A DNA stretch of 64,000 nucleotides, taken from NCBI GenBank assembly GCA_902796125.1, contig CADBNT010000064.1, positions 698 to 64,697 of the forward strand. The letters run 5' to 3'. Position numbers and translations under genes: made by a program. Below, in pieces: positions 6,336 to 51,364 of this stretch. Below the pieces are notes generated by a model. That model did no database searches. It was not told the DNA's origin and saw only the letters and a program-made list of their open reading frames with translations. Source of the stretch: an uncultured Erysipelotrichaceae bacterium. GTDB taxonomy: Bacteria > Bacillota_I > Bacilli_A > RFN20 > CAG-826. Numbering within the stretch: position 1 is the stretch's first letter; the number at the start of each line of letters is the position of its first letter.

Positions 6336-8006
6336 TTATAATGAAGCAATTAATGCATCAACGAAGTCGGTACCTTCTGTACCATCTTCATGAATGACAA
6401 TTAAGGAGTTAAGTTGACTCCAATATGCGCCTTGATGATTGTTCATAGTCGCATGGAGTAATGTTGCATTCATACGTCCATTGTCTTCGTACTTCATGAA
6501 CATATCTTTTTCATGCATATCATCAAGGGAGCTAACTATCTTACTTCCTACATGTTTTCCAAGTTCAACTGTGTCAAATAAACTTGTATCAATGTTTCCG
6601 ATTTTGATAAAGACTTTACTCTTTAAGTTTTCTAATTCGCCTTTATCCTTTCTTAAGGCTTTAACCATCTTATCTTTAATAATACGAATATATTCGTAGT
6701 TAGTAAGATACTTATTACCTCTCCAATAAAGTTCAACAGCTTTCGTGCTATTGTAAACTTTATCTAAGTAATAGAAATATTGATCATCTTTATTAAGACC
6801 ACCAAAGCCTTCTACAAATGGTGTAAACATCATTCTAAAAGCTTTGTCATTCTCAGTTCCAAGATAGATAAGCATTTCATTTTCAATAGAGCCATAACCA
6901 GAAGATTTGATTGTTGCTTTTTGACTCTTAATCTTTTCAGCAAAATCATATCTAAATTTACTGACATCATCTTGAGCCATGTAGTCTTTACTAAACTCAA
7001 TCATATTTGTCGCACATAAATAAATATATTTATGATTAATGATAACTACACCGCTTTGAGATGCAGCGTTACCAGCAATGCCGTTGTAATTAACGCCATC
7101 TAAATTTGCAGATGAAGAGAAAACACCGTATTCATTTTCATTACCTTCAGAATCGAGATAGTATCTAGCCGTGCCAATTTTTAAGTGGTACATATCGGCA
7201 GCAGACTTGCCATCATATGAAATCCACTTACAAGGGTGATAGTCTAGATAATCTCCAACAGTCTTACCTGCTAAGGCTGGAATATCAACACAGCTTTCGC
7301 TTAAAACTGAGTTGAAGTATGTTGCGGCAGGTATTTCTGTACCATAGTTAGAGTAGCCATCTAATTGAGAGATAACGTTGACTTTAATACCTAGTTTAGC
7401 TGCAAAGGTTAATAGATAAGAAAAACGAACAAATCCATCACGATCAATTGGTTCATCGGGCATCGATTTCATTGTTCCAAAGTATTCGCTACTTCTAACA
7501 ACGTTCACGCCAGCGATAATAGAGAGGCGGAATGAAACAACAGAGATTTCATTTTCAACTTCAGGATGAGCGATTTTATGTTGAATTGCTTGATAAAGCA
7601 AAACACCTAACGCGACGTTTGGATGATTAATATTTGCATCTGATGAATTGTATAAAATATCAGCCTTAACATCTTTGCCATTAATGTTATGGAAAACCTT
7701 TTGATGATGAGAGACAAAGTTGTTTGGTGATTCAACGTGTGAATATTGACTGTAATATGGGAAATCAACTTCTTTATTTAAGAAGTAGTCATATTCTGTT
7801 TCATTCGCGGTAAGTGATCTTAAGAAGTCTTGGATATCACTACTAACAGAAACAGTTTTAAAAACTTGTTTTTGTTCATCATTTTTAATCTCTAAAACTT
7901 CTGGAGAGTCTTTAATGATTTTTAATTCACTCTTGATGTTTGAACAACCGGTTAAACAAAGCATCAAGGTTGAGCATAAAACGACTTGTTTAGTTAACTT
8001 TCTCAT
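6336..8006 (-). CDS. Lipoprotein of unknown function (556 aa)
   Basis: Signal peptide with lipobox LTGC (MRKLTKQVVLCSTLMLCLTGCSN). Its end overlaps the upstream gene by 4 nt (ATGA). I recognise no catalytic motif. Confidence 0.6.
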   Translation of the reverse strand: MRKLTKQVVLCSTLMLCLTGCSNIKSELKIIKDSPEVLEIKNDEQKQVFKTVSVSSDIQDFLRSLTANETEYDYFLNKEVDFPYYSQYSHVESPNNFVSHHQKVFHNINGKDVKADILYNSSDANINHPNVALGVLLYQAIQHKIAHPEVENEISVVSFRLSIIAGVNVVRSSEYFGTMKSMPDEPIDRDGFVRFSYLLTFAAKLGIKVNVISQLDGYSNYGTEIPAATYFNSVLSESCVDIPALAGKTVGDYLDYHPCKWISYDGKSAADMYHLKIGTARYYLDSEGNENEYGVFSSSANLDGVNYNGIAGNAASQSGVVIINHKYIYLCATNMIEFSKDYMAQDDVSKFRYDFAEKIKSQKATIKSSGYGSIENEMLIYLGTENDKAFRMMFTPFVEGFGGLNKDDQYFYYLDKVYNSTKAVELYWRGNKYLTNYEYIRIIKDKMVKALRKDKGELENLKSKVFIKIGNIDTSLFDTVELGKHVGSKIVSSLDDMHEKDMFMKYEDNGRMNATLLHATMNNHQGAYWSQLNSLIVIHEDGTEGTDFVDALIASL

Positions 8007-10408
8007 AATTCACTTGTGTCCTTTAATGTGTATTTACCATTCTCATAGACAAGTGTGCCATCGTAATTGAATGCTGACTTATCAGCTTTACCGGTTATAT
8101 AGATGGTACATTTGTTTGTATTTGAGAATAGGTTTTCTGATCCAACTGTTGTAGCGCTACATCCAGTTGAAGAACCTGAATAAATAATTAATCTAGAGCC
8201 AGTAGTTGTAATATAAACAAAGCCACCACTTAATGCACTATTACTTGTTGAAGTAATGCTGTACATAGTTAATGTAGAAGCTCCAGATTGATAAGCGAAT
8301 CCACCAAAGTTTGTAGCCTCATTACCACTACCCGTTACGTTATTAAGTGTGCAATTCACGGATGCATAGACATAAAGTGCTCCACCATTGGTACTTGCTG
8401 TATTACCACTAAATGTAGCATTCTCAATGTTAGCAATTGCTGAATCTGTAACGTAAACAGCACCACCATTATTAGCGGAGTTAGTTGCAAAAGTATTTGT
8501 GCCTGATGTGCTAACAACTGCACTATTATTCGCATAGATAACGCCACCATATGCAACAGCATCATTGCTGGTGTAAGTATTGTTAGTTAAGGTGCATTCA
8601 CTTCCTTTGGTGATATATAAACAACCACCGTGACCATATTTGCTGCTTGGATTTAAAACAGCATGGTTACTAGTGAATGAAGAACCACTAATACTCATAA
8701 TCACATGTCTTGCATAAGTTTCATCTTCATTATCATTACCAGCACCAACTGCGCCACCTAAAGCACCTGTATTATTTGTAAAACTACAATTAGAAAAAAC
8801 GATGTATCTTGAAGGTGTTGATCCATCAGCAGAACCATAGTAAGCATAGACAGCGCCACCTTTAGAGGTACAAACGTTATTCTCATAGGATGTACTAACG
8901 GAATTTAAAACGCCTTTGCAAGCAATGGCTCCACCATTGCTAACTGTTTCGTTTCCATAGAATCTAGCGTTAACAATATATAAGTTTGCATTTAAAGCAA
9001 TAAATATTGCTCCGCCGCTAGCTTCAGATGAATTGTTAATAAAGGCAATATCATTTGCGTTTTCACCAACAAAGTGGCAATCACAATATTGAGAATCCGC
9101 TAAATAAATGGCACCACCATATTTGTTTGCTAAGTTTTCATCAAATGTTGCAGTAACAATATTTAGTGGTCTAACTGTATAAATGACTCCACCATAGGTG
9201 GCGCTATTATTTCTAAATGTTCCACTTAAGATACTTGTTTCACCAATGGTGTAAATAGCTCCGCCAACAGATGATTTATCAATAGTGTCACAAACACTGT
9301 TATGGTGGAAATAACCACCATCAATTACTAATGTTGCGAAAACGGTAATGATGCAAGATCCACCAACTCTTTCTGGAGTGGAGATATATTCTTCATCGCT
9401 TTCACTTCCATAGTTAAAAACTCTATCGTTATCAGTCTTTCTATTATTTGTAAAAATAACGCCTTCTTTAATGGTGGCATTAGAAAGGGAAGCAAGGAAT
9501 AAAACTGACCCTTTAACTACAACAGTAGGATTAGCTTCATCAGCATAGATTACATCTGCATTACCGTTAAATGTAAGTTCACCACCACTATACGTTTCAA
9601 TGGTTAATGAAGATTGAACGCCATCGATAATTGATTTGTGCCCATTTTCATCAATACCAACAACAAACATATCTCCACCAAAGGTGGTTTTTCTAGAAAT
9701 AGTAATTTCTTGAGAAGTAGTAAATGTCACAGAGTGATTGATATAAATAGTGCTATCAATCTCAATATTATTAGTAATATCAATTACTGGAACAGATGCT
9801 TCAATAGCGTTTCTAAGTTCAGCTTGAGTTGATACGGCAACTTTATCTGAATTTGAAACTCTATAAATAACTTTGTAGTTTTTATCTACTGAACCAGTAA
9901 TACAAAATGGGTGATCTTCTTCATCATAAAAGCCATTAAAGTAGCTTCCAACAGGTAAGGAAGGCAATTCTAAAGAATAATAACCATCCGCGTCGGAATA
10001 ATATTTCTTAATGAGTTCATCTGCTTCGTTATATAAAGAAATAACAAAGCCAGTTAATTTACTTACTGGAGAAGATTCTTCATATCCACAGATAGTGCAT
10101 TCTCTTTGTTTTACTCCAGCTTCTTCATGAGTTGGCTCTATTACGTAATGCCAATCATTAAATGTATGAGCTTCGACTTCAGAAGGTTCACCACAAATTG
10201 TACATTCATGATAATGCCCTTCAGAGTTGGATTTCCAAACATCGGAATATGTATGGGTATGAGTAGGATCACCAGAAGTACTTGACTCTGATGTAGAACC
10301 AGAGGTAGAAGGATCACCAGAAGTACTACTATCTCCAGATGATCCACAACCCGTAAGTAAAAATGAAAAGGCTAATAGCGATAACAAATATTTAATTTGT
10401 TTATTCAT
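8003..10408 (-). CDS. Surface lipoprotein with parallel beta-helix / polymorphic-membrane-protein (Pmp) GGA[IV]-FxxN repeats
   Basis: Lipobox LLTGCGSS followed by a Ser/Thr-rich linker (STSGDPSTSGSTSESSTSGDP). More than 12 repeats of GGAIY/GGAVY/GGVIY interleaved with F(T/S)NN / FxxN. Two ECTICG motifs lie about 37 aa apart near the N-terminus. Confidence 0.7.
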   Translation of the reverse strand: MNKQIKYLLSLLAFSFLLTGCGSSGDSSTSGDPSTSGSTSESSTSGDPTHTHTYSDVWKSNSEGHYHECTICGEPSEVEAHTFNDWHYVIEPTHEEAGVKQRECTICGYEESSPVSKLTGFVISLYNEADELIKKYYSDADGYYSLELPSLPVGSYFNGFYDEEDHPFCITGSVDKNYKVIYRVSNSDKVAVSTQAELRNAIEASVPVIDITNNIEIDSTIYINHSVTFTTSQEITISRKTTFGGDMFVVGIDENGHKSIIDGVQSSLTIETYSGGELTFNGNADVIYADEANPTVVVKGSVLFLASLSNATIKEGVIFTNNRKTDNDRVFNYGSESDEEYISTPERVGGSCIITVFATLVIDGGYFHHNSVCDTIDKSSVGGAIYTIGETSILSGTFRNNSATYGGVIYTVRPLNIVTATFDENLANKYGGAIYLADSQYCDCHFVGENANDIAFINNSSEASGGAIFIALNANLYIVNARFYGNETVSNGGAIACKGVLNSVSTSYENNVCTSKGGAVYAYYGSADGSTPSRYIVFSNCSFTNNTGALGGAVGAGNDNEDETYARHVIMSISGSSFTSNHAVLNPSSKYGHGGCLYITKGSECTLTNNTYTSNDAVAYGGVIYANNSAVVSTSGTNTFATNSANNGGAVYVTDSAIANIENATFSGNTASTNGGALYVYASVNCTLNNVTGSGNEATNFGGFAYQSGASTLTMYSITSTSNSALSGGFVYITTTGSRLIIYSGSSTGCSATTVGSENLFSNTNKCTIYITGKADKSAFNYDGTLVYENGKYTLKDTSEL

Positions 10409-16128: not shown

Positions 16129-17190
16129 TTATTTATGGGATTTGACGTAGAAACTATAATACCACTCCGCAAATTTTCTTAATCCTTCTCTCAAAGATGT
16201 AGAAGGCTTATAACCAAAGTCTTTTTCCAAATCACTTGTATCAGCATATGTAATAGGTACATCGCCTTTTTGCATTGGCACAAGTTTCTTATGTGCCTCA
16301 AAGTCATAGTCCTTTGGAAGCACCCCTGCTCTAACAAGTTCTTCAGAAAGGATTTGAACGAAATCTAATAGATTTTCTGGATGATTATTGCCAATGTTAT
16401 AGACTTTATATGGAGGAATTGGTAAACCATCTTCTCCGTTTTTCTTTTCAGGAGCTTTGTTCATAACGCGAACAATACCTTCCACGATATCGTCTACGTA
16501 AGTAAAGTCTCTCTTACAATTACCGAAGTTAAAGATTTCAATGCTTTCACCTTTAATTAGTTTGTTGGTAAAACCAAAATAGGCCATATCTGGTCTACCC
16601 ATTGGGCCATAAACGGTGAAGAATCTTAATCCGGTGCAAGGAATGTTATAGAGCTTGCTATATGCATGCGCGAGTAGTTCATCAGTCTTCTTAGTCGCTG
16701 CATATAAGCTAACTGGGTTATCAACTTTGTCATTCGTAGAGAACGGAACCTTTGTATTACCGCCATAGACAGACGAGGAAGAAGCATAAACAAGGTGTTC
16801 AACTGGATTATATCTGCAAGCCTCTAAGATGTTATAAAAACCAATGATGTTGGATTGAATATAAACATCTGGGTGATCAATGGAATATCTAACCCCTGCT
16901 TGAGCAGCGAGATTCACCACTACATCGAACTTGTATTCTTTAAATAACTTATCGATAAATGGTTTGTCAGAGATATCACCTTTGATAAATTCAAAGTTCT
17001 TATATCCTTTGAGCATTTCAAGTCTCGCATCTTTAAGCGAAACATCGTAATAGTTATTGACGTTATCAACACCAATAATTCTGTCTTTAGAAGTTTCTAA
17101 AAGGCGCTTGCACAAGAAGCTTCCAATAAAACCAACAGCACCTGTAACTAAAATCGTTTTCATACTATTTAATGTTCTCCCATATATCAT
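16129..17190 (-). CDS. NAD-dependent epimerase, UDP-glucuronate 4-epimerase-like
   Basis: Rossmann motif VTGAVGFIGSFLCKRLL and the segment VDNVNNYYDVSLKDARLEML typical of Cap1J/GlaKP-type UDP-GlcA epimerases. YAATK catalytic motif. Confidence 0.7.
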   Translation of the reverse strand: MIYGRTLNSMKTILVTGAVGFIGSFLCKRLLETSKDRIIGVDNVNNYYDVSLKDARLEMLKGYKNFEFIKGDISDKPFIDKLFKEYKFDVVVNLAAQAGVRYSIDHPDVYIQSNIIGFYNILEACRYNPVEHLVYASSSSVYGGNTKVPFSTNDKVDNPVSLYAATKKTDELLAHAYSKLYNIPCTGLRFFTVYGPMGRPDMAYFGFTNKLIKGESIEIFNFGNCKRDFTYVDDIVEGIVRVMNKAPEKKNGEDGLPIPPYKVYNIGNNHPENLLDFVQILSEELVRAGVLPKDYDFEAHKKLVPMQKGDVPITYADTSDLEKDFGYKPSTSLREGLRKFAEWYYSFYVKSHK

Positions 17191-29743: not shown

Positions 29744-30511
29744 TTATTTGCTATTAAGAGATTGAAGATTAACAATTTCAAATAAGATTTCATTTTCTAA
29801 GCAATGGTTGATAATGGTGTTTTTATCAAAAACGTTCATAGATGAAGGAATATATACTTTTTTAGGCTTTAATGTAAATAAACTAACATAATCACCAAAG
29901 TGTTTACTATCATCATGCCCATAGATTCTATATTCACATTCGAAATCATATTTCTTTTTCTTACGCAAAAGAGAGTTTGTAACAATATGTACTTTGTTTT
30001 TTCTGCTTAACGTCAATAGCAGATTATCTGAAGCAAATTTATGCCTCTCTTTATTTAATAAATCATCGCCAACCAAGTCAAAATATTCATTTATAAATTC
30101 AGAAAAATCATAAGGATCATCTATATATTGAATTGCTCCATAGTGCAATCTATATGGTATATCCAACCATAATTGATGGTTAATAATCCGCATTATTTCC
30201 CTTTCATCATATTCAAGGCAAAAACCACAATTAGAAGTAAATTTATCCCAAAGTGAAAGAGATTGAGAACTGGCGGGTGGAACAGAAGAAAAGCAAGAAA
30301 GATAATAATGACTGCGACAATTATCGATTAGATGATGCACTACTTGATTGGCAATCAAAATGATTTTATTTTTCTTTAGCCTGTTCTTATCAACAAACCA
30401 ATCCAGTTCTCCTTGATCGTCAAAATATTTAAACAAAGTACCATTGATTTGGTTCTTTATAAAATAATCAATGTTATATCTATTTGCTGACCTGTACTTG
30501 AAAACTTTCAT
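29744..30511 (-). CDS. Hypothetical protein, DUF2971-like N-terminus
   Basis: 255 aa, soluble. Begins MKVFKYRS..., reminiscent of the DUF2971 family often seen in defense islands. No catalytic motif. Confidence 0.4.
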   Translation of the reverse strand: MKVFKYRSANRYNIDYFIKNQINGTLFKYFDDQGELDWFVDKNRLKKNKIILIANQVVHHLIDNCRSHYYLSCFSSVPPASSQSLSLWDKFTSNCGFCLEYDEREIMRIINHQLWLDIPYRLHYGAIQYIDDPYDFSEFINEYFDLVGDDLLNKERHKFASDNLLLTLSRKNKVHIVTNSLLRKKKKYDFECEYRIYGHDDSKHFGDYVSLFTLKPKKVYIPSSMNVFDKNTIINHCLENEILFEIVNLQSLNSK

Positions 30512-30616
30512 GGCAAATTATTATAACACCCACCAAGGAGAGTGGTCTTTTCTGAGAAAAGGCATTCGCTTAAGCCAGTATTAGAAAACAATAACAATCA
30601 CTATTTTGATTAGATG

Positions 30617-30656
30617 TCTTTAACGTGCTGTAATAATCCCTATTAATTTTTGTAGC
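30617..30656. repeat. Left copy of an imperfect direct repeat (TTTAACGTRCTGTAATAATCCC...TTTTTAGC) flanking the 3-gene cassette
   Basis: tctttaacgtgctgtaataatccc at 30617-30640 matches tttttaacgtactgtaataatccc at 36477-36500 in 22 of 24 positions. Both are followed by a T-rich ...tttt(g)tagc segment. Confidence 0.6.
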
Positions 30657-31030
30657 ATATTATTCCGACTGTAACAATCCTAATTAGAGGTGTGTTGAGC
30701 CTATATGCTAAATAATATACATGAACATAAGAATAGTTAAGATTAATGTCTTTTTAAGATGAAATCACATTCTAGTTTTCCAATTCTCCCAACGGATGCT
30801 TCATATCTCTTGGACTTAGCGTATAAATAAACGGTATTTTTAAGCGCGGTTCCACAATTGATCCTACTGTCAGGATTTGTAAATATAGTTAAGATAAATT
30901 GCCAAATAATATTTCTTTTCGTTTTGAAACATCTTTTTTTGGATTTCAAATCAAATCTATCACATTCATAAATAATCTTTTATTTGAAATTAATAATCAT
31001 TCGGACACTGTTCCATCTTAATATGAAATT

Positions 31031-34000
31031 TTATTTTTTTATTTTACTCTTGGCTCGAATTGAGTTTTGAGCATTTGCATTTCCGTTTGTAATTAAATGA
31101 ATAAGTTCACCAGAATTCTTTTCAACCCATTCATAATTATCAAGACAAAATCTTCTTCCAATTAAGGCTGCGCTTCTTAAAACAAACTTATCCTTTTCTG
31201 TTTTTAAACATTTCTTCGTTTCATTAACGAACTCAGTCCTATCTGTTGAAAAAGATAAAAGCATTAATTTCTGAGCTAAATGTACATTGTCTTTGTTCAA
31301 AGAAAGTTGGTTGCGAACAGTTTCTATGATTATTGGATTGCGAACAAATCGAGTGCAAATATCGAAAATTGATAGAATCGAAGCATGTATCTCCCACGCT
31401 ATGGATTGTTTCACATATTGATAAGTTACTTTTGTTTGAGGGATTTTAGATAACTGATCATAAACCCGCACAAAAAGAATATCTAGTTTTTTAATTGTAT
31501 CAGCTAGATAAACATTAATAATGGCATAAGGTAACTTAATCAACATTTCTGCAAGCTGGTTCTTCGCATCTTTCCTTAGAACACTAGAAAAATTATTCAT
31601 GATAGAAGAAATTATCAGCGCTTTATTTAACAAGTCATCCAAGCGTAAAAAAGTTGTTCTGCTAATATCGTAATAAAAGTAATCATCTTTGTGACTCAAA
31701 TGAATCTTTCGATTTTTTTCTTCTTCTAATCCTTGCTTTTCCCTTATTTCATTTCTTTTCTTTTTACTTATCTCCAATGCTTTAAATCCTTCATCATTAT
31801 CATCTAATGCTTTGAAAAACGAATCGAAAGAATCGAATTTCATCTCAGGTTCTTTCATTATTCCATCATATAATTCCTTGATAAAAAACTCTGGAATAGT
31901 TCTAATTTCATAATTTGCAGCAATCGAAAATAAAATCTGAAGATTGATTGGTTTATAAATTCCGTTCTCAATTATTTTCTTCAAATATGTTTCATCCTCA
32001 TAATTATTTTTCTTATACATTGCAAATTTTGAGACGTAATGAGCAAAAGTTTTTCTATTGTAGAAAGAAAGTTCGTCTTTTTCGTTTCTTTTAAGAATTT
32101 CAATTTGTATGAGCATTTCAATAAAAGAATCTATGCTTTTGATTGGAGCTCTACCACCATATTCATCGGCCCTTTCTTTTATAGCTTTTATAAACATATT
32201 TTTATCGATCGTGCTCGTTTGCTTTAAATAAGCATCCATAGCAACAAAAGCTATAATATCCTCAGCTATGTTGCAATCGCAATATTGGTAGCCACCTTCT
32301 TTTAAAGCACGATCAAGCATTACTTTAAGTTTTGTTTGAAATAGTGAGTTTGATGGTGATATTTGATAATTTGCTTTTTTTAAATATGATAATGAAACAT
32401 ATATGATATTTGAAGGATCCATCATATTGTCAACATCCAATTCTTTCAACTTATTCTCAATATTTTGTACATAATTATTAAAATCTAAATTATCAACTAA
32501 AGATGGCGTTGTATCTTTAACATATGAATAGACTTTTTCATAAAGTTTTGCCCGTTTATCGTAAAAGAATGGTTCTATTTCAAAAACCTCAAATTCATAT
32601 TCATTATCATCTTCTTCGCTCGATATAAAATCCTTTGATGATAAAGTTGTATAAATAATAGAGCCAAATAATTTTAAAGCATTTCTGAATAAAATGCGTG
32701 ATCCTTTGATTAGGTTATCAATAATCAGGATTCTCTTCTCTTTTGGGACGCAATAAAAAGAGTCGATATCATTCTTTTCGGCATAAAGTTGTTTTAATTG
32801 CCTTGCTATGCTCGATTCTAAATCGGTTCCCAAATCGTCTCCCTTACAAATTAATGGTAAATATCCTTTCTTTCTATATGCCTCAAAAAGATGTTTGACA
32901 AATTGTGATTTCCCAGAACGCACATCTCCTAATATTTTAGTAACACCATCAGTTGCTCTAGCGGATTCGAAACGCTCAAAAGTTGTTATCGATTCTTGGT
33001 TAGAATACTTCTTATGGCTTAGCTTTGGAAAAACAAATAGTTTTTCAATAGGAACAACTAGATTGTTAACGCCATCAAACACTTCCATGTTGCGCAATTC
33101 TTTTATCCTATCGCTTGCAACAATTTGGCCAAATGATGTTGAAAACTTTCTATGTATACTTGCAATGGAAGAAAACTTAAAAATATATTGGTCGATAGAA
33201 AAAGAATAATAATCTGTTTGAATCTTCTCATCATCAAACAAAACAATCGAGAAACCTGACATGTTATTGCAATCTATAGCGGAGGCCGTGAATTCAAGTA
33301 GTTCAGATTCTTCGTTGATGGTTTTTTCAAGCTGTTCCTTATGAACGTGACCAGTAAAAATTGCATCTATTCTGTTTGATAGATTTGTTTTTATGTAATT
33401 AAGACATTCACTTCTTAAATAATTAATAGGCATATGCATAAGAAGAAAAACATAATCGTTATTTTCGCGAGAAATATCCAAAAATTGATTCCTAATATAG
33501 ATTTTTCCTTTATTCAAATCCATACCTTTGTAGTCCTTGTCAAAAAATGACAATAGCGCATTGTTTAAAGAATAAATACGGACTCTTTCCTCACCAACCA
33601 TACAATCGTAACGCTTCAAAATAGGATTTACATTTTCAAAACTAGGGCATATTCTTTTCTCAAAATCGAAATAATGCTTGTTTAGATAAAGATTATTATT
33701 CATTTCCGTTTCATAATTACTTTTGGTAATGGAAGAAATGTAATTAAGATCACGTTTTTCACCATTATTGAAAAGCCTGTCATGATTTCCCGGACACAAA
33801 GATACCTTTACCCTCTTTTCATTAGAAATATTACTAACCAATTCTCTAATATAATTTTCTGCATATACATATTCACTGCTTTTTCCTGTTTTGGATATAT
33901 CACCAGAAAACAAAATTAAAACATCGCGATATTCTGAATACTTGCTGTTCAATATGTTTGAAATGCTTTTAATTTTCTTTTCTTTGCTTTCAACAACGTC

Positions 34001-34042
34001 TTCAATGTGTAAATCGCTAATATGCAACGTTAATAATTTCAT
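31031..34042 (-). CDS. Large multidomain protein: N-terminal calcineurin-like metallophosphoesterase, central P-loop NTPase, C-terminal helical region
   Basis: Metallophosphoesterase motifs LHISDLHIE (like D-x-H), FSGDISKTG (like GD), and CPGNHD (like GNH[DE]). Walker A GDVRSGKSQ and Walker-B-like RILIIDNL. 1003 aa. The ATGA start overlaps the upstream ATPase gene. Confidence 0.65.
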   Translation of the reverse strand: MKLLTLHISDLHIEDVVESKEKKIKSISNILNSKYSEYRDVLILFSGDISKTGKSSEYVYAENYIRELVSNISNEKRVKVSLCPGNHDRLFNNGEKRDLNYISSITKSNYETEMNNNLYLNKHYFDFEKRICPSFENVNPILKRYDCMVGEERVRIYSLNNALLSFFDKDYKGMDLNKGKIYIRNQFLDISRENNDYVFLLMHMPINYLRSECLNYIKTNLSNRIDAIFTGHVHKEQLEKTINEESELLEFTASAIDCNNMSGFSIVLFDDEKIQTDYYSFSIDQYIFKFSSIASIHRKFSTSFGQIVASDRIKELRNMEVFDGVNNLVVPIEKLFVFPKLSHKKYSNQESITTFERFESARATDGVTKILGDVRSGKSQFVKHLFEAYRKKGYLPLICKGDDLGTDLESSIARQLKQLYAEKNDIDSFYCVPKEKRILIIDNLIKGSRILFRNALKLFGSIIYTTLSSKDFISSEEDDNEYEFEVFEIEPFFYDKRAKLYEKVYSYVKDTTPSLVDNLDFNNYVQNIENKLKELDVDNMMDPSNIIYVSLSYLKKANYQISPSNSLFQTKLKVMLDRALKEGGYQYCDCNIAEDIIAFVAMDAYLKQTSTIDKNMFIKAIKERADEYGGRAPIKSIDSFIEMLIQIEILKRNEKDELSFYNRKTFAHYVSKFAMYKKNNYEDETYLKKIIENGIYKPINLQILFSIAANYEIRTIPEFFIKELYDGIMKEPEMKFDSFDSFFKALDDNDEGFKALEISKKKRNEIREKQGLEEEKNRKIHLSHKDDYFYYDISRTTFLRLDDLLNKALIISSIMNNFSSVLRKDAKNQLAEMLIKLPYAIINVYLADTIKKLDILFVRVYDQLSKIPQTKVTYQYVKQSIAWEIHASILSIFDICTRFVRNPIIIETVRNQLSLNKDNVHLAQKLMLLSFSTDRTEFVNETKKCLKTEKDKFVLRSAALIGRRFCLDNYEWVEKNSGELIHLITNGNANAQNSIRAKSKIKK

Positions 34043-35289
34043 ACCGCTATCTCCTTGTTGCCTTTAAAAAAACTATCATTCAAAAAATAATCTATTCCGG
34101 TTTCATTTGAGCCTGTCAAATCGTAACAGTAAACAATGATTTTGATTGTACCATTATTTAATGAAAGTAAATTGCCTATTTCTCTATCATAATTTGCTGC
34201 CGTTATCGTGTGTGCAACCTGAATGTGATAATCATTGCCATTTAATCGATAATTAAAATCAATCTCACCATCAATTTTATTCTTTTTATTCAAAATGATT
34301 TTTCCTCTAGGATTTATTCCTCTAGAAATCAACTCAAGATATACTGCATTTTCTAAACAATTTGATCTGGCTTTATTTTGATTTTCGCATTTTATATAAC
34401 GGATACCGTTATCGCTAAAATAATATTTCTTATTCAATCCAATGTTTTTTAAAGGAGTTTTCTCATTAAAATCATCTACTTCTATGTATGATGTCAAAAA
34501 TGAATTATCAAAGAATTCTAAAACATCTTCAATATCTTTAATCAGTAACATCATATCAAATTTGGTGTTATCCACTCCCTTTGCGAATCTAAAAGCGACT
34601 TGACTTGGGCTAAACGGCGATGCACTAGATGCTAAAAGCGATAGAATCTCATCGATATGGTTTTTAGAAAGATAATTTAATTTTCCTTCTAATCTATCTC
34701 TAATATCTAGTTGATAAATTTCATTGCAAATTTTGCGTAACTCGGAAACGCGCTTTTCTGGCTCCTCATTGATAATAACTGGCAATCCACCATAAAGCAT
34801 GTATTCTTCGAAGGAATAATCACTCTTGTCTTCAACGATTTCTTTATAAGTTAAGGACCTCAAATAAAGCGGATTTGCTAATTCTTTAAAGTTTTCAACG
34901 ATATCCCAAGAAAGAATATCGCTGTTTGAACCAGAAACATAAAGTGTGATATTTTTGTTATCTTTGACAAAATCAGAAAAAAATTTAACATAACCTTTGA
35001 TGAGTTGAGCTTCATCCACAATCAGAACTTTTATATCGTTTTTTACAAGTTTAAAAACCGCTGAAGTTAATTGAGCTAGTGTTTCAATATTCCTATTCTC
35101 ATCGTTTAGTTTTAAAATGCCGATTTCTTGTTCTAAAGCATAATGATTTTCTATTAAATGCTTTTTAAATAGTTCGGTTAAAAGATATGTTTTTCCAGAT
35201 CTTCTAAGACCAGCAACTATATTCACTTTTCCATTGCCGAGAAAAGAAACAAGTTCATTAATTTCGTTTAATCTCTTAAAATCCGCCAT
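34039..35289 (-). CDS. AAA_14 / DUF4143-family ATPase
   Basis: Walker A AGLRRSGKTYLL, Walker B VLIVDEAQ, and a C-terminal DUF4143-like segment KKYYFSDNGIRY. 416 aa. Confidence 0.75.
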   Translation of the reverse strand: MADFKRLNEINELVSFLGNGKVNIVAGLRRSGKTYLLTELFKKHLIENHYALEQEIGILKLNDENRNIETLAQLTSAVFKLVKNDIKVLIVDEAQLIKGYVKFFSDFVKDNKNITLYVSGSNSDILSWDIVENFKELANPLYLRSLTYKEIVEDKSDYSFEEYMLYGGLPVIINEEPEKRVSELRKICNEIYQLDIRDRLEGKLNYLSKNHIDEILSLLASSASPFSPSQVAFRFAKGVDNTKFDMMLLIKDIEDVLEFFDNSFLTSYIEVDDFNEKTPLKNIGLNKKYYFSDNGIRYIKCENQNKARSNCLENAVYLELISRGINPRGKIILNKKNKIDGEIDFNYRLNGNDYHIQVAHTITAANYDREIGNLLSLNNGTIKIIVYCYDLTGSNETGIDYFLNDSFFKGNKEIAV

Positions 35290-36364
35290 AACCTTTTAAT
35301 CCTTTCTCTAATAAATTTTCTAAACCATAATATGCAATGCCAGTTTTATCAATAATTAACTCCATGTGACCCAAAACAGCAACCATTTGAGGAATGTGTG
35401 TTTTTGTTTTTTTAAATCTTTCAACTATTTCATCATTATCCCCGAAATCTATTTTGATGATGCATTTACGATCAAAATATTCAATCAAGAATCCGCGATT
35501 AAATTCCACTCTTGATTTATATTTGCCTTCAACTGTATCTGCATGGTAAGAAATAGCTCTATTCACCATATAGTTTTCCGAAAACATTTTCGCTACCAGG
35601 AAGGCTTCACATTTAAGCTTGTATTTCTTTTCGTGAGGCAAATCGGTTAAATCTATATCGGAAACGAATGTTGGGTAGAAAACAAAACCTGATGATAGTT
35701 CATCCATATCTTTAACATCAACTCTTTTTAAGAGATAAATCATTCCTAATTTATTCATTAGGTTAATAGTGTCGACATAGAACATTAGTCTTCTATCAAT
35801 TGATTTGGTTTGCTCTAAAACATGTCTAAAAGATAAAACTTCACCACTATGATTAACTAGATACTTATAAAGTTCAATGGCGGCATCCTTGGCACCATAA
35901 TTCTCTAAAGGTTTTATGTGATAATCTTCACTCTTTATATCATCACCATAAAGCATTGGTGCTAAAAAGAATCTAATATATCTTCCACGAACCTGCGTAT
36001 CTTTATTTTTTAATTTATAAGAGACTTCAATATCGCTTGTAATAATTCCATCAATATTATTCTTTCCATAGAAAACATTAATTATTGCCTCTGGATAATA
36101 GAAGAAGAATAAATCATGAATAAGCACCACTGCTCTATTGTCTTTACAAAAATCAATGATATCAGCAAGTCTTCCTAAAATATTTCTGTCAGAATATTTC
36201 TCTGGATAAAATTCAAAGAACAAGCAATTATTAATTTTACCTTTAATTGCTTCTTTAACTTCACCAAGTAAATAATTACCTGCTTCGGTTTCCCTGTTGC
36301 AAGTTATGACCTTGGCTTTGCCATTACCGAGATTATCTAAAATATTGAGCGTTAATCTTTTCAT
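35276..36364 (-). CDS. Hypothetical protein, first gene of the repeat-flanked cassette
   Basis: 362 aa, soluble, with no motif I recognise. It overlaps the ATPase gene by 14 nt, so they are translationally coupled. Confidence 0.5.
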   Translation of the reverse strand: MKRLTLNILDNLGNGKAKVITCNRETEAGNYLLGEVKEAIKGKINNCLFFEFYPEKYSDRNILGRLADIIDFCKDNRAVVLIHDLFFFYYPEAIINVFYGKNNIDGIITSDIEVSYKLKNKDTQVRGRYIRFFLAPMLYGDDIKSEDYHIKPLENYGAKDAAIELYKYLVNHSGEVLSFRHVLEQTKSIDRRLMFYVDTINLMNKLGMIYLLKRVDVKDMDELSSGFVFYPTFVSDIDLTDLPHEKKYKLKCEAFLVAKMFSENYMVNRAISYHADTVEGKYKSRVEFNRGFLIEYFDRKCIIKIDFGDNDEIVERFKKTKTHIPQMVAVLGHMELIIDKTGIAYYGLENLLEKGLKGYGGF

Positions 36365-36476
36365 AGTTCTATTATATTATTTTTTTACAAAATTTCAACT
36401 TTTATTATGGTTTGTATTATTTTAGTTAATCTTTTTGCCATAACACTTTTAATATTTTTGCATTTTTGTCACGGTA

Positions 36477-36512
36477 TTTTTAACGTACTGTAATAATCCC
36501 AACTTTTTTAGC
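36477..36512. repeat. Right copy of the direct repeat
   Basis: See the left copy. It sits in the 235-nt intergenic region upstream of the 362-aa gene. Confidence 0.6.
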
Positions 36513-36598
36513 TATTTCAAATAGTTCCGATGGACTCAGTCCAATATCGCAATTATTCTACAAAATTCTGTGTAATACTACTAGGTGATAATAATGTG

Positions 36599-37876
36599 CT
36601 AGCAGCTTTTGAAATCGCGCACCTTAACAACGAATAACGAACTATACAAAGTTGGGCTGCCCGTTTTAAATCCAACAACTTGTACATAATGATTTCCATT
36701 ATATGATGTGTGTTCTTCTCTAATTAATCTAGAAGAAGGACTTATTTCAACATTTGATTCTTCGCAGCCGCCCCTCAATTGGTTTGCAATTCTAGCTTCG
36801 TATCCGGCGTTAGAAATAACAAATTTAAAATCATAGCCTGAATAGAATGAACTTTTATTTATTTCAAATCTTAAATACGTTTCTTTATCTACTGTATCAC
36901 CGCTTTGAACAGTCGTAGAAGTTCCTTTTATGTGACAAGATAATGATAGTAAAGGTGACTGAATTTGATAATTAAGTAGATTTGAGTGTTGTTTGGCATT
37001 TTTTTGATATGCCTCAGCGATTCTTGTTTCTAAATCATTAATTGAAGAATTTGAAATCAAATAATTAATAACAAGATGTTCATCATCGGTTAGTAAAACT
37101 TCATATAAATTTTTTATAAACTCTCGGATTGTAAAGAATTCACTATTACTATGTATGTCCATGATATTGTTTCCATTTGGATTCGCCGGATCATATATTT
37201 TTGTGATACCTATTTCAAAATAATGTTTAGAGAATTCGATTAATTTTTCCACTAATGATGAATTGTCATCCAAGCAAGGTTCCACAACATCAACTGCAAA
37301 AATCTCTAAAAAGAATGATTTAAAAGCAAAGTTATGAGTTTTTCTTAAAATTTTTATTATTCTAACTACATCTTTCATTTTTGAAGACTGTATCTTTTTT
37401 ATTTGTTTTTCTGGATTACTCTTCAATCTCGAATCATCTTTATTGCAATATAAATAAACATCTTTTTCGTCACCACCACTTGAATATTTACCAGGAACAA
37501 CATCAACGGAAATGTCTTCCCAAATTCTGTAGTCTTTACCATAAACTAGAATCGCACTATTTTTCTTTTGAATTAAATACCCGGCTTTAGTTAACGCAGA
37601 TGCGATACCATTATAAATATCGCGAACTGATAATTGGGTGTCGCTTTCAAAATAAACAAGCAAATCTATATCGCAACTATCTTTATTAGCGGTTCCTTTA
37701 GCTAGAGAACCACCATAGCGATAATTTGGCTTGGCATCAAACCCTTCATTTATTGCCGATTCGATAGGATCACGGATGACGTTTTTAAAATGTTCCCAAA
37801 GGCCATCTTTAATTTGGTGTTTTGATAATAATTCTTTAAATATTGCATCAGTCAGCATATTAAATAGTCTTCGCAA
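36599..37876 (-). CDS. Pol-beta-superfamily nucleotidyltransferase, SMODS / CD-NTase-like
   Basis: GGSLAKGTANKDSCDIDLLVYF contains the GS...DxD nucleotidyltransferase signature. A downstream acidic DISVDVVP and a KSFFLEIF helix are reminiscent of cGAS/DncV-like enzymes. 425 aa. Confidence 0.55.
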   Translation of the reverse strand: MRRLFNMLTDAIFKELLSKHQIKDGLWEHFKNVIRDPIESAINEGFDAKPNYRYGGSLAKGTANKDSCDIDLLVYFESDTQLSVRDIYNGIASALTKAGYLIQKKNSAILVYGKDYRIWEDISVDVVPGKYSSGGDEKDVYLYCNKDDSRLKSNPEKQIKKIQSSKMKDVVRIIKILRKTHNFAFKSFFLEIFAVDVVEPCLDDNSSLVEKLIEFSKHYFEIGITKIYDPANPNGNNIMDIHSNSEFFTIREFIKNLYEVLLTDDEHLVINYLISNSSINDLETRIAEAYQKNAKQHSNLLNYQIQSPLLSLSCHIKGTSTTVQSGDTVDKETYLRFEINKSSFYSGYDFKFVISNAGYEARIANQLRGGCEESNVEISPSSRLIREEHTSYNGNHYVQVVGFKTGSPTLYSSLFVVKVRDFKSC

Positions 37877-38657
37877 TCTTAAACGTTTTCAAATTCAAAG
37901 AGAAAGCATACTCATTGTTTAAATACTCATAAACAATAATTTCTGGATGTCTTTCTTCAATGGCTGTTCCAACAACAAAAGAGACAGGTTGTTTTGCAGA
38001 AATATACATATTTATTCTTTTAATATTTCTTGTTTGTGACCACACTAACACAGATTCTACAAATTGATATACCTTTTGCAAATATTTATTATCAATTTTA
38101 TTATTTGTTAATTCTTCGAATTCGAACGTTTTTAAAGATGCATTATATTTTGAAGGCGAAATCTTATATGTACTTGAAATAACTATATTGATTTCATTTC
38201 CAACTAAAACATCGCCACATTCGATTTCAGCGGGACTATTGCTTGATTTTTTTGAATAAAGAATTGAATAATATGAGTTTTTATTATTGTCATAGCAAAT
38301 TAAATCTAATTTAGTTGTATTACCAATTTCCATTCCATCAAAAACAGCAAACATTGGTGAAACAAATCCGCCATAAGTAAAATCAATGTTTTCTTTAAGA
38401 TTTCTTTTTATTTGAAATAACCTATACTGCATCTTCTTAAAATGTGTTCGATACATTTTATAACTTGTGGGTAAATTCTTGCCTAAAACAATGACTTTTG
38501 AATCTTTAACATTAATACATTTGCTACGGCACGCTTCTTCCAAGTTAAAAGACTTTTTGTTTGAATTAAGATAAACTATGCTTTTGTTTTTCCAAAAAAT
38601 GGCAGTTATACATGCCCAAATCTTTTTAAAAATAAATAATCCCGTTTCTAAAGTCAT
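37860..38657 (-). CDS. Hypothetical protein with an N-terminal hydrophobic helix and a beta-strand-rich C-terminus; candidate effector partner of the NTase
   Basis: 265 aa. The N-terminus GLFIFKKIWACITAIFW is hydrophobic. The C-terminal half alternates hydrophobic and polar residues (IVISSTYKISP, VSFVVGTAIEE, IIVYEYLNNEYAFSLNL). Its 3' end overlaps the NTase start by 17 nt. Confidence 0.45.
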   Translation of the reverse strand: MTLETGLFIFKKIWACITAIFWKNKSIVYLNSNKKSFNLEEACRSKCINVKDSKVIVLGKNLPTSYKMYRTHFKKMQYRLFQIKRNLKENIDFTYGGFVSPMFAVFDGMEIGNTTKLDLICYDNNKNSYYSILYSKKSSNSPAEIECGDVLVGNEINIVISSTYKISPSKYNASLKTFEFEELTNNKIDNKYLQKVYQFVESVLVWSQTRNIKRINMYISAKQPVSFVVGTAIEERHPEIIVYEYLNNEYAFSLNLKTFKIAKTI

Positions 38658-38782
38658 GTAATCTCCGTTTTTTATATTATAAAAGAACTAAAGAAGGCAT
38701 ACCACAAAAACAAACGAAACAATCTACTTTCGCTTCTCTCTTTTTTGATGGATTTATAGACACAAAAGGAACAGGCGCCACT

Positions 38783-38991
38783 ATGGATAGTAAAGACAAT
38801 GTTATCATAGACAAGAAACCTTCATGCGAATATAACATCTGTCTTTATATCTTAGAAGAATTATACGATAAGGGGGGTTATTGATGTCTTTTGAAATGAC
38901 TGAAGCCATAATTCTTCTGAGAAAGAAATACAAAATACCTAAAAATATCTATGGTAAAAAAGACAATAATTCCAGCAAACTAAGAAATTAG
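38783..38991 (+). other. Two tandem, translationally coupled micro-ORFs (33 aa and 35 aa)
   Basis: ORF A is ATG 38783 to TGA 38884 (MDSKDNVIIDKKPSCEYNICLYILEELYDKGGY). ORF B has its ATG at 38884, sharing TGATG with ORF A's stop (MSFEMTEAIILLRKKYKIPKNIYGKKDNNSSKLRN), and is preceded by the strong SD AAGGGGGG. Both fall below the length cut-off of the ORF track. Confidence 0.2.
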
Positions 38992-39084
38992 GAAAAGAAC
39001 TATCAAAAACGAGTCCAGATTATAAATTATGATTCTGTGCTTGTGTTTGTGTATCTACTGACGCAGAAGAGCGATTAGAGTCTT

Positions 39085-51153: not shown

Positions 51154-51364
51154 CTACTTCTTAAAATCCGCATACCATTCTGCAAATTGTTTAAGACCTT
51201 CTCTTGAACTTGTTGATGTTTTATATCCGAAGTCTTTTTTCTAGTGTACTTGTATCTGTGTATGTAATTGATACATCGCCTACGGCATAGACTTTATTGC
51301 CTTGGGCTGCAATAATAGAATTGCTTAACACAACGTATCCAGTACCAGTAACATAAATTTTCAT
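51154..51364 (-). pseudogene. Deletion scar: in-frame fusion of a ugd N-terminus (about 28 aa) to a UDP-GlcA-epimerase C-terminus (about 40 aa), then frameshifted
   Basis: The reverse-complement reading MKIYVTGTGYVVLSNSIIAAQGNKVYAV matches the start of the ugd at 28499-29734 ([28 protein letters not shown]). It then continues directly as GDVSITYTDTSTLEK..., matching the end of the epimerase at 16129-17190 ([36 protein letters not shown]). A +1 slip in an A-run breaks the frame, and the tail KKDFGYKTSTSSREGLKQFAEWYADFKK* resumes in another frame. The ATG lies 2 nt after the stop of the sugar-transferase gene. Confidence 0.7.

Follow-up and report, generated by a model that had tools for sequence, protein, structure and literature searches.

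The stretch of DNA considered here, 64 kb of contig CADBNT010000064.1 from an uncultured Erysipelotrichaceae bacterium and referred to as the window throughout, carries three adjoining minus-strand open reading frames (ORFs) of 362, 416, and 1003 amino acids (aa), designated genes A, B, and C. A preliminary description of this DNA presented them as a tightly coupled operon in a defense island, and this part is confirmed: the coordinates hold (Table 1), the ORFs overlap by 14 nucleotides (nt; A/B) and 4 nt (B/C), and a CBASS pair as well as DUF262 and DUF2971 genes are found as neighbors. The best sigma-70-like site of the region is located directly ahead of A and is the likely promoter of an A-B-C transcript. 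Owing to this 11/12 site before A and to the lack of any detected terminator-like site between A, B, and C, the three genes are probably transcribed as one unit, distinct from the upstream CBASS pair. The leader ahead of A (window 36365-36475) contains two tandem boxes of the type GACAAAAnnTGCAAAA, approximately 50 nt apart, each resembling a -35 followed by a -10 element. Among the related loci and contigs compared with the window (L001-L031), this tandem arrangement is also present 5' of A in L017, L006, L024, L001, L004, and L025, distant A-B loci included; its exact sequence is not kept.

Judged by its profile matches, gene C encodes a distant member of the known and validated DS-8 family. 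Residues 7-946 align to positions 1-954 of the 994 positions of the NCBIfam model NF053861 “DS8_antiphage” (E = 5.6e-74), resulting in a collinear, full-length match. The PADLOC model PDC-S60 is matched as well (E = 1.5e-13), and Metallophos is the single Pfam domain recognized (residues 5-235, E = 1.3e-16). DS-8 (DefensePredictor system 8; WP_032203427.1), validated in E. coli, consists of one protein that combines a metallophosphatase with a NACHT module, and the mutations D52A, N84A, and K375A abolish its defense (PMC13092281). Our comparison of C with DS-8, made through the NCBIfam profile and not pairwise with the E. coli protein sequence, identified D48, N86, and K378 of C as the equivalents of DS-8 D52, N84, and K375. 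Three regions can be distinguished in C, a metallophosphodiesterase domain (residues ~1-300), a NACHT-like STAND NTPase (~340-520), and an all-helical C-terminal region (~520-1003). Across 12 relatives with identities down to 26%, the metallophosphoesterase motifs D10-x-H12, G47-D48, G85-N-H-D88, H203, and G231-H-x-H234 are invariant, as are Walker A (G372...G377-K378) and Walker B (D442) of the NTPase. The AlphaFold model (predicted local distance difference test, pLDDT, 83) is all helical over the last ~480 residues. Its fold, in which a NACHT module is attached to a phosphodiesterase domain, matches NLRP3, NOD2, and NLRC4 and has the SMPDL3 and acid sphingomyelinase group among its structural neighbors. 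Domains and predicted fold thus agree with the effector-NTPase-sensor layout of STAND/NLR type with a metallophosphoesterase effector that had been suggested for this protein. A catalogue of N-terminal effectors of bacterial NACHT proteins from 2022 already included calcineurin-like phosphoesterases (Kibby et al.).

The family of C is small, comprising 15 clusters in the indexed search. A sequence search of the PDB returned weak matches to metallophosphoesterase and P-loop regions, and no Avs or bNACHT model was among the PADLOC matches of C. SbcCD, from which C had been set apart in the preliminary description, was considered as an identity for C and ruled out: the resemblance does not extend over the full length but is confined to a weak match of 90-105 N-terminal residues to SbcD (E = 0.005), and the score on TIGR00619 is 19.7 bits against a cutoff of 77.65. 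Viral contigs as well as phage and plasmid records contained no relatives of C beyond distant partial metallophosphoesterase matches on five plasmids. A distant match of C, the 980-aa related protein P0029 (E = 1e-18, 36% of the query covered), carries the precomputed Pfam annotations AAA_14, Metallophos_2, ABC_tran, and Metallophos, and may be a metallophosphoesterase fused to an AAA_14-like NTPase.

Gene B encodes an AAA_14 P-loop ATPase (E = 2.2e-18) with a winged helix and a probable C-terminal DUF4143 domain of the PD-(D/E)xK superfamily. It matches the PADLOC PDC-S01 model PDLC04787 over its full length (residues 4-401 to model positions 11-399 of 412, E = 6.2e-52). PDC-S01, an ATPase fused to a PD-(D/E)xK domain, belongs to the most abundant defense candidates and is unvalidated (PMC12988326, PMC13356809, PMC3424549). 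With B and C thereby placed in PDC-S01 and in the DS-8 family (PDC-S60), respectively, the combination, which was thought not to be assignable to any named system, is composed largely of named ones. The score of B itself on the Pfam DUF4143 model, 18.2 bits, is below the cutoff of 28.1, whereas relatives of B at ~30% identity pass it. Invariant throughout the B family are Walker A (G27-x-R-R-x-G32-K33; GLRRSGKT in B, GxRRxGK[TS] in the family), Walker B (D92-E93; VDEAQ, DExQ), the sensor S121-N-S123 (TGSNS), and the residues E313, D344, Q357, E370, and K383; the canonical (D/E)xK lysine of the DUF4143 domain is not obvious.

The 362-aa product of gene A, described initially as a protein lacking any recognizable motif, is, on profile and model evidence, a degenerate and presumably catalytically dead paralogue of B. 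The protein itself had no profile match in Pfam, PADLOC, or NCBIfam, and a direct BLASTP comparison of A with B gave nothing significant; the homology emerged via profiles, structure, and transitive matches. A hhalign comparison of both families placed the N-terminal domains in register (E = 1.7e-4, probability 50%), with GLRRSGKT of B opposite CNRETEAGN of A and the Walker B DE(A) of B opposite HD(L) of A. The related protein P0182, a distant full-length member of the A family, passes the Pfam DUF4143 threshold (E = 3.6e-8), and the weakest matches of the A profile are genuine AAA_14/DUF4143 proteins. In line with this, the model of A (pLDDT 89) resembles winged-helix STAND/AAA+ ATPases, among them 2qen and 2fna (over ~210 residues), and displays an alpha/beta domain devoid of a P-loop, followed by a winged helix and a PD-(D/E)xK-like domain. 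The loss of the ATPase motifs is common to all 14 members of the family, none of which retains conserved acidic residues in the nuclease-like domain. A is the fastest evolving of the three genes, and its family is rare, with 14 clusters in the indexed search and 54 representatives among 1.84 billion proteins in the profile search. Sequence searches of the PDB with A and with B returned no relatives, and none of A were found in viral contigs, phage records, or plasmid records.

Comparison of gene neighborhoods showed that A and B belong together. In each of the nine distinct contexts examined, B is immediately preceded by an A-like gene, at identities down to 40% for B and 22% for A. A C-family gene follows immediately in four of them (window, L017, L006, and L024) and is absent from the other five (L001, L002/L003, L004/L005 with B split into two ORFs, L025/L026, and L027/L028), where A-B is succeeded by genes for proteins of 403, 262, and 607 aa with no recognizable domains. 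Conversely, C occurs without A-B in four contexts (L007/L008, L009, L010/L011, and L029-L031), next to RES, Pycsar, AbiH, reverse transcriptase, SIR2, and Thoeris genes. The survey thus finds homologues of all three genes in defense-rich surroundings, as expected beforehand, and at the same time revises the notion of the three genes as one unit, which is not obligate: the A-B and C modules are separable. Between the window and L017, protein identity amounts to 40% for A, 76% for B, and 97% for C. At DNA level, identity is ~55% over A, 60-79% over B, and 87% at the 3' end of B, rising to 95-99% from the start of C, and the homology stops 49 nt after the stop codon of C. This jump at the B/C boundary together with the end shortly past C points to a recombination breakpoint and to C having been exchanged as a unit of its own. 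L024 and L017 present the opposite pattern, sharing 84% identity in A and 82% in B and only 28% in C. The trees of A and B disagree with each other.

The same neighborhoods could also be read as one integrated three-component system, in which A-B works with a DS-8-like NLR as an extra sensor, regulator, or second effector, and loci with C alone or A-B alone are reduced or alternative forms. The overlapping ORFs behind a single strong promoter-like site speak for such a system, and so does the identical gene order in four genomic contexts. Nearly identical A-B pairs precede C proteins of 28% identity, and A proteins of 40% identity precede nearly identical C proteins. With both families being rare, repeated chance adjacency is unlikely. 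Against this stand the protection conferred by DS-8 as a single gene, the solitary occurrences of either module, and a breakpoint exactly at the B/C boundary. In L024, moreover, B and C are 53 nt apart, and a separate ribosome-binding site serves C. The four linked loci may descend from just one or two ancestral juxtapositions, and defense genes are densely packed in these islands anyway. On balance, we regard an integrated system as possible but not probable.

We slightly favor a reading in which a single transcript carries two genetically separable anti-phage modules, with A-B as a two-subunit variant of PDC-S01 and C as a DS-8-like protein. The promoter upstream of A would drive the one transcript for both modules. 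A and B would form a hetero-oligomer, in which the fast-diverging A may serve as recognition or regulatory subunit and B as the active subunit, combining ATP-dependent assembly with nucleic-acid cleavage. For C, the analogy with DS-8 and with bacterial NACHT and Avs proteins suggests that the helical C-terminal region senses a phage cue, upon which the NACHT NTPase would drive oligomerization. The N-terminal metallophosphodiesterase of the oligomerized protein would then be active and hydrolyze a phosphodiester substrate. Candidates for the latter are nucleotides, cyclic nucleotides, and nucleic acids.

Several observations weigh against this two-module reading. The score of C on NF053861, 249.5 bits, is below the equivalog cutoff of 790, which makes C a distant DS-8 homologue and not an equivalog, and its function may therefore differ. 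The defense role of C and of PDC-S01 members is putative, PDC-S01 being an unvalidated candidate. The homology of A and B rests on moderate statistics (the hhalign probability given above) in combination with fold and transitive Pfam evidence. Furthermore, the ORF overlaps suggest translational coupling, and the neighborhoods suggest a linkage of A-B and C-family genes beyond the frequency expected for two rare families packed together by chance. With C next to A-B in four of nine contexts and the C of L024 being so divergent, this argues for some functional or regulatory coupling, which two independent modules do not explain.

A further question concerned the direct repeat flanking the three genes, which had been taken to delimit an A-B-C cassette. 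The repeat itself is as reported, with 22 of 24 bases matching between 30617-30640 and 36477-36500. Its core 22-mer TTTAACGTNCTGTAATAATCCC occurs exactly twice in the 64 kb, even with three mismatches allowed (expected 0.02; two matches in none of 100 shuffles). On one side, the homology extends over ~40 nt, with a local alignment score of 45 (shuffled sequences: mean 22.9, maximum 32). Extension of the analysis to related loci revealed that the repeat is part of a larger element, here called E, with the consensus GGGATT[A/G]TTACAGTCGGAATAATTTG, ~8 nt, AAAAATTA-GGGATTATTACAGTACGTTAAAGACA, of which the 22-mer is the 3' core. The core of E measures ~66 nt and contains two direct sub-repeats 42 nt apart; some copies show ~100 nt of additional 5' homology (66-170 nt overall), and deletion variants occur, L015 being devoid of the first sub-repeat and L006 of part of the second. 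Exact copies were found three times on one contig of a rumen Bacilli metagenome-assembled genome (MAG), once in each of two Erysipelotrichaceae MAGs, and once on each of six metagenome contigs. Among the loci compared, the element was noted in L012-L016 and L018-L024. E is always located upstream of the next gene and in the same orientation. These downstream genes are diverse and mostly related to defense (PDC-M42A, a retron/DRT-like reverse transcriptase, SoFic, AbiLi, a ThsB-type TIR protein, and the DUF2971 gene), with core genes among them as well. Consequently, E is a recurring island junction element of rumen Bacilli and Erysipelotrichaceae and not a mark of the A-B-C cassette.

The view of the repeats as ends of a mobile A-B-C cassette, in the form of a target-site duplication or of attachment (att) sites, nevertheless accounts for several findings. 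Two copies of E bracket A-B-C in the window, L024 has a remnant of E before A and a full E after C, and E is upstream of A in each of the four A-B-C contexts. In addition, synteny breaks sharply at E, after ...GTTAAAGACA: the CBASS pair and E copy 1 of the window recur in L019/L020, which continue thereafter with a 5'-truncated epimerase fragment instead of A-B-C. On the other side, E precedes many unrelated genes, the L017 and L006 sequence compared contains no exact or near-exact E core past C, and the downstream E of the window is parted from C by the remnant of a different gene. The end of the L017 homology likewise lies 49 nt past C and not at E. An imperfect repeat of 22-24 nt within ~100 nt of shared sequence differs from a target-site duplication, and neither a recombinase or transposase in the island nor an inverted copy of E was detected. 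A mobile cassette delimited by E is therefore unlikely in our judgment.

Other functions considered for E were discarded. For a structured RNA, neither the gathering threshold of Rfam nor a limit of E <= 1 yielded a match, and RNAalifold predicts no pairs. Transposon ends or a target-site duplication do not fit with all copies sharing one orientation, with no inverted partner and no transposase, and with the repeat lying inside 66-170 nt of shared sequence. A promoter is contradicted by the distance to the next start codon, varying from 38 to 230 nt, and inspection revealed no good -35/-10 pair inside the element. An att core was examined at the L019 junction, where a hand count against the intact epimerase gene yielded ~12 of 21 bases in register, which is unconvincing. 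The remaining options are a recombination or junction site and a shared protein-binding site. E might even be the recombination or junction site of an undescribed cassette-exchange platform of rumen Bacilli and Erysipelotrichaceae, integron-like and devoid of attC and IntI, that shuffles defense modules, including A-B and DS-8-like genes, into polysaccharide loci and has recurrently assembled them into a cooperating three-gene unit. We consider this far-reaching scenario speculative and rather improbable.

The island enclosing these genes is placed between two polysaccharide clusters. Read along the minus strand, polysaccharide cluster 1 is followed by the DUF262 gene with a 201-aa ORF, the CBASS pair, E, and A-B-C, then by a DUF4143-type remnant, the second E, the DUF2971 gene, and finally ugd, a UDG-family gene, and polysaccharide cluster 2. 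The G+C content is ~0.30 over 28-55 kb compared with 0.33-0.38 in the flanks. The 381-aa DUF262 protein matches the PADLOC models NsnA (E = 2e-42) and PD-T4-2_A (E = 2.6e-32); the overlapping 201-aa ORF has no profile matches, and together they could represent a split GmrSD-type gene or a two-gene system. The remnant falls within the 520 nt that follow C, ahead of E copy 2, and matches an ORF in L013 at 77% identity (tblastn E = 6e-15). In L013, this counterpart of the DUF4143-type (PDC-S01-like) remnant is intact, and 2.4 kb with two more ORFs separate the gene from E, which indicates that either the window underwent a deletion or L013 an insertion.

Table 1. Positions of genes and other features within the 64-kb window
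Feature	Position	Strand	Description
Polysaccharide cluster 1	51974 to 40901		minus-strand reading
DUF262 (GmrSD_N/NsnA-like) gene and 201-aa ORF	40798-39085		further upstream of the CBASS pair
CBASS pair	36599-38657	minus	SAVED effector 37860-38657; cyclase with AGS_C domain 36599-37876
Element E, copy 1	36475-36598	minus	starts right after the stop codon of the CBASS cyclase; core 22-mer 36500-36479; degenerate first sub-repeat ~36543-36520
Sigma-70-like promoter (likely)	36371-36398	minus	TTGAAA-16-TATAAT, 11/12; best of the region; ends 7 nt before the ATG of A
Gene A	35276-36364	minus	362 aa; predicted catalytically dead paralogue of AAA_14/DUF4143 ATPase
Gene B	34039-35289	minus	416 aa; AAA_14 ATPase with probable DUF4143 domain; PADLOC PDC-S01
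Gene C	31031-34042	minus	1003 aa; DS-8-family protein, by profile match
DUF4143-type gene remnant	30719-30829	minus	frameshifted 3' part (LKNTVYLYAKSKRYEASVGRIGKLECDFILK / KDINLNYSYVHVYY); truncated at the beginning of element E
Element E, copy 2 (long form)	30615-30716	minus	first sub-repeat GGATTGTTACAGTCGGAATAAT from 30680; core 22-mer 30640-30619; 108 nt upstream of the DUF2971 gene
DUF2971 gene (PADLOC PDC-S31)	29744-30511	minus	next gene after E copy 2

The named relatives of the window are rumen “Bacilli bacterium” and Erysipelotrichaceae MAGs. In the related genomes of L009, L010/L011, L029-L031, L017, and L007, defense genes (DS-8-like, RES, Pycsar, AbiH, reverse transcriptase, SIR2, Thoeris, KAP NTPase, and Fic) are interleaved among genes of rhamnose and polysaccharide operons (rfbA/B/C, ugd), and the surface-polysaccharide locus apparently represents the defense hotspot of this lineage. 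The position between polysaccharide biosynthesis clusters could be taken as a hint at a housekeeping role of A-B-C, be it DNA repair or the metabolism of polysaccharides or nucleotides, and the metallophosphoesterase fold is common to Mre11/SbcD and nucleotidases. The dissimilarity of C to full-length SbcCD, the patchy distribution of the rare families, and the differing contexts even between close relatives disagree with such a role, as do the known defense genes adjoining in nearly every locus and the fact that the closest characterized relative is a validated anti-phage protein. We therefore judge a housekeeping function to be very unlikely.

Further features of the window were recorded outside the three genes. 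The block 38726-39002, between the 201-aa ORF and the SAVED gene, is a second conserved intergenic block, which shares 84% identity with L012 (5420-5688) as well as with three pieces of L014, the flanking CBASS genes being unmatched at DNA level. Its plus strand contains two tiny overlapping ORFs of 33 and 35 aa, whose counterpart in L023 is a single 66-aa ORF (2763-2963), and may represent a small frameshifted gene; there was no Pfam match. Toward the edge of the island, at ~51157-51345 on the minus strand, a UDP-glucose dehydrogenase-like N-terminal fragment (MKIYVTGTGYV...NKVYAV) runs directly into ~40 codons from the end of the NAD-epimerase gene (tblastn match 51157-51280), the intact epimerase being located at 16129-17190. 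This chimeric relic looks like a rearrangement scar. Finally, four diverged copies of a 50-nt unit at 8298-9160, inside the ORF 8003-10408 (801 aa), suggest a repeat-containing surface protein.

New in this analysis are the dead-paralogue partner A, the recurrent linkage of A-B with C, and the element E. The assignment of C extends the range of the DS-8 family to distant Gram-positive rumen bacteria and provides a diverged sequence set with invariant catalytic residues. At least one clade of PDC-S01 appears to pair with a catalytically dead, fast-evolving paralogue, which offers a handle on how these ATPase-nucleases sense infection. As A-B is recurrently, though not obligately, linked with DS-8-like genes of two very different kinds, it represents a test case for synergy or regulatory coupling between defense modules. 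Together with the defense genes interleaved with rhamnose and polysaccharide genes, the junction element points to lineage-specific island building.

In comparison with known systems, E resembles integron attC sites in being a conserved non-coding element at junctions of unrelated co-oriented defense cassettes, with a sharp synteny break at one end. In contrast to attC, it has no palindromic structure (no inverted repeats) and no integrase nearby, and it is located upstream of the next gene instead of at the 3' end of a cassette with a G/TTRRRY core. B shares with PDC-S01 the full-length profile match, the intact Walker A and B motifs, the conserved residues in the region of the probable DUF4143 domain, and the location in defense islands. 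PDC-S01 is defined as a single gene, whereas the clade of B always has an A-like gene directly upstream, usually overlapping. The resemblance of C to bNACHT and Avs/AVAST proteins is architectural and structural, comprising the layout of effector, STAND NTPase, and helical sensor; it differs from them in that Pfam yields no more than weak nSTAND3 matches, in relatives, and in that its sensor region is without a recognizable repeat family. The closest correspondence is the one between C and DS-8, which agree in length (1003 and 1014 aa), in their domain order, with a metallophosphatase at the N terminus, then a NACHT-type P-loop NTPase, and finally a long C-terminal region, and in their structural neighbors (SMPDL3 and the acid sphingomyelinase group). 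Relatives are found as single genes in defense islands. They differ in host, DS-8 originating from E. coli and C, known here from sequence, from a rumen Bacilli MAG, and in arrangement, as C occupies the third place in an operon, with a 4-nt overlap with B.

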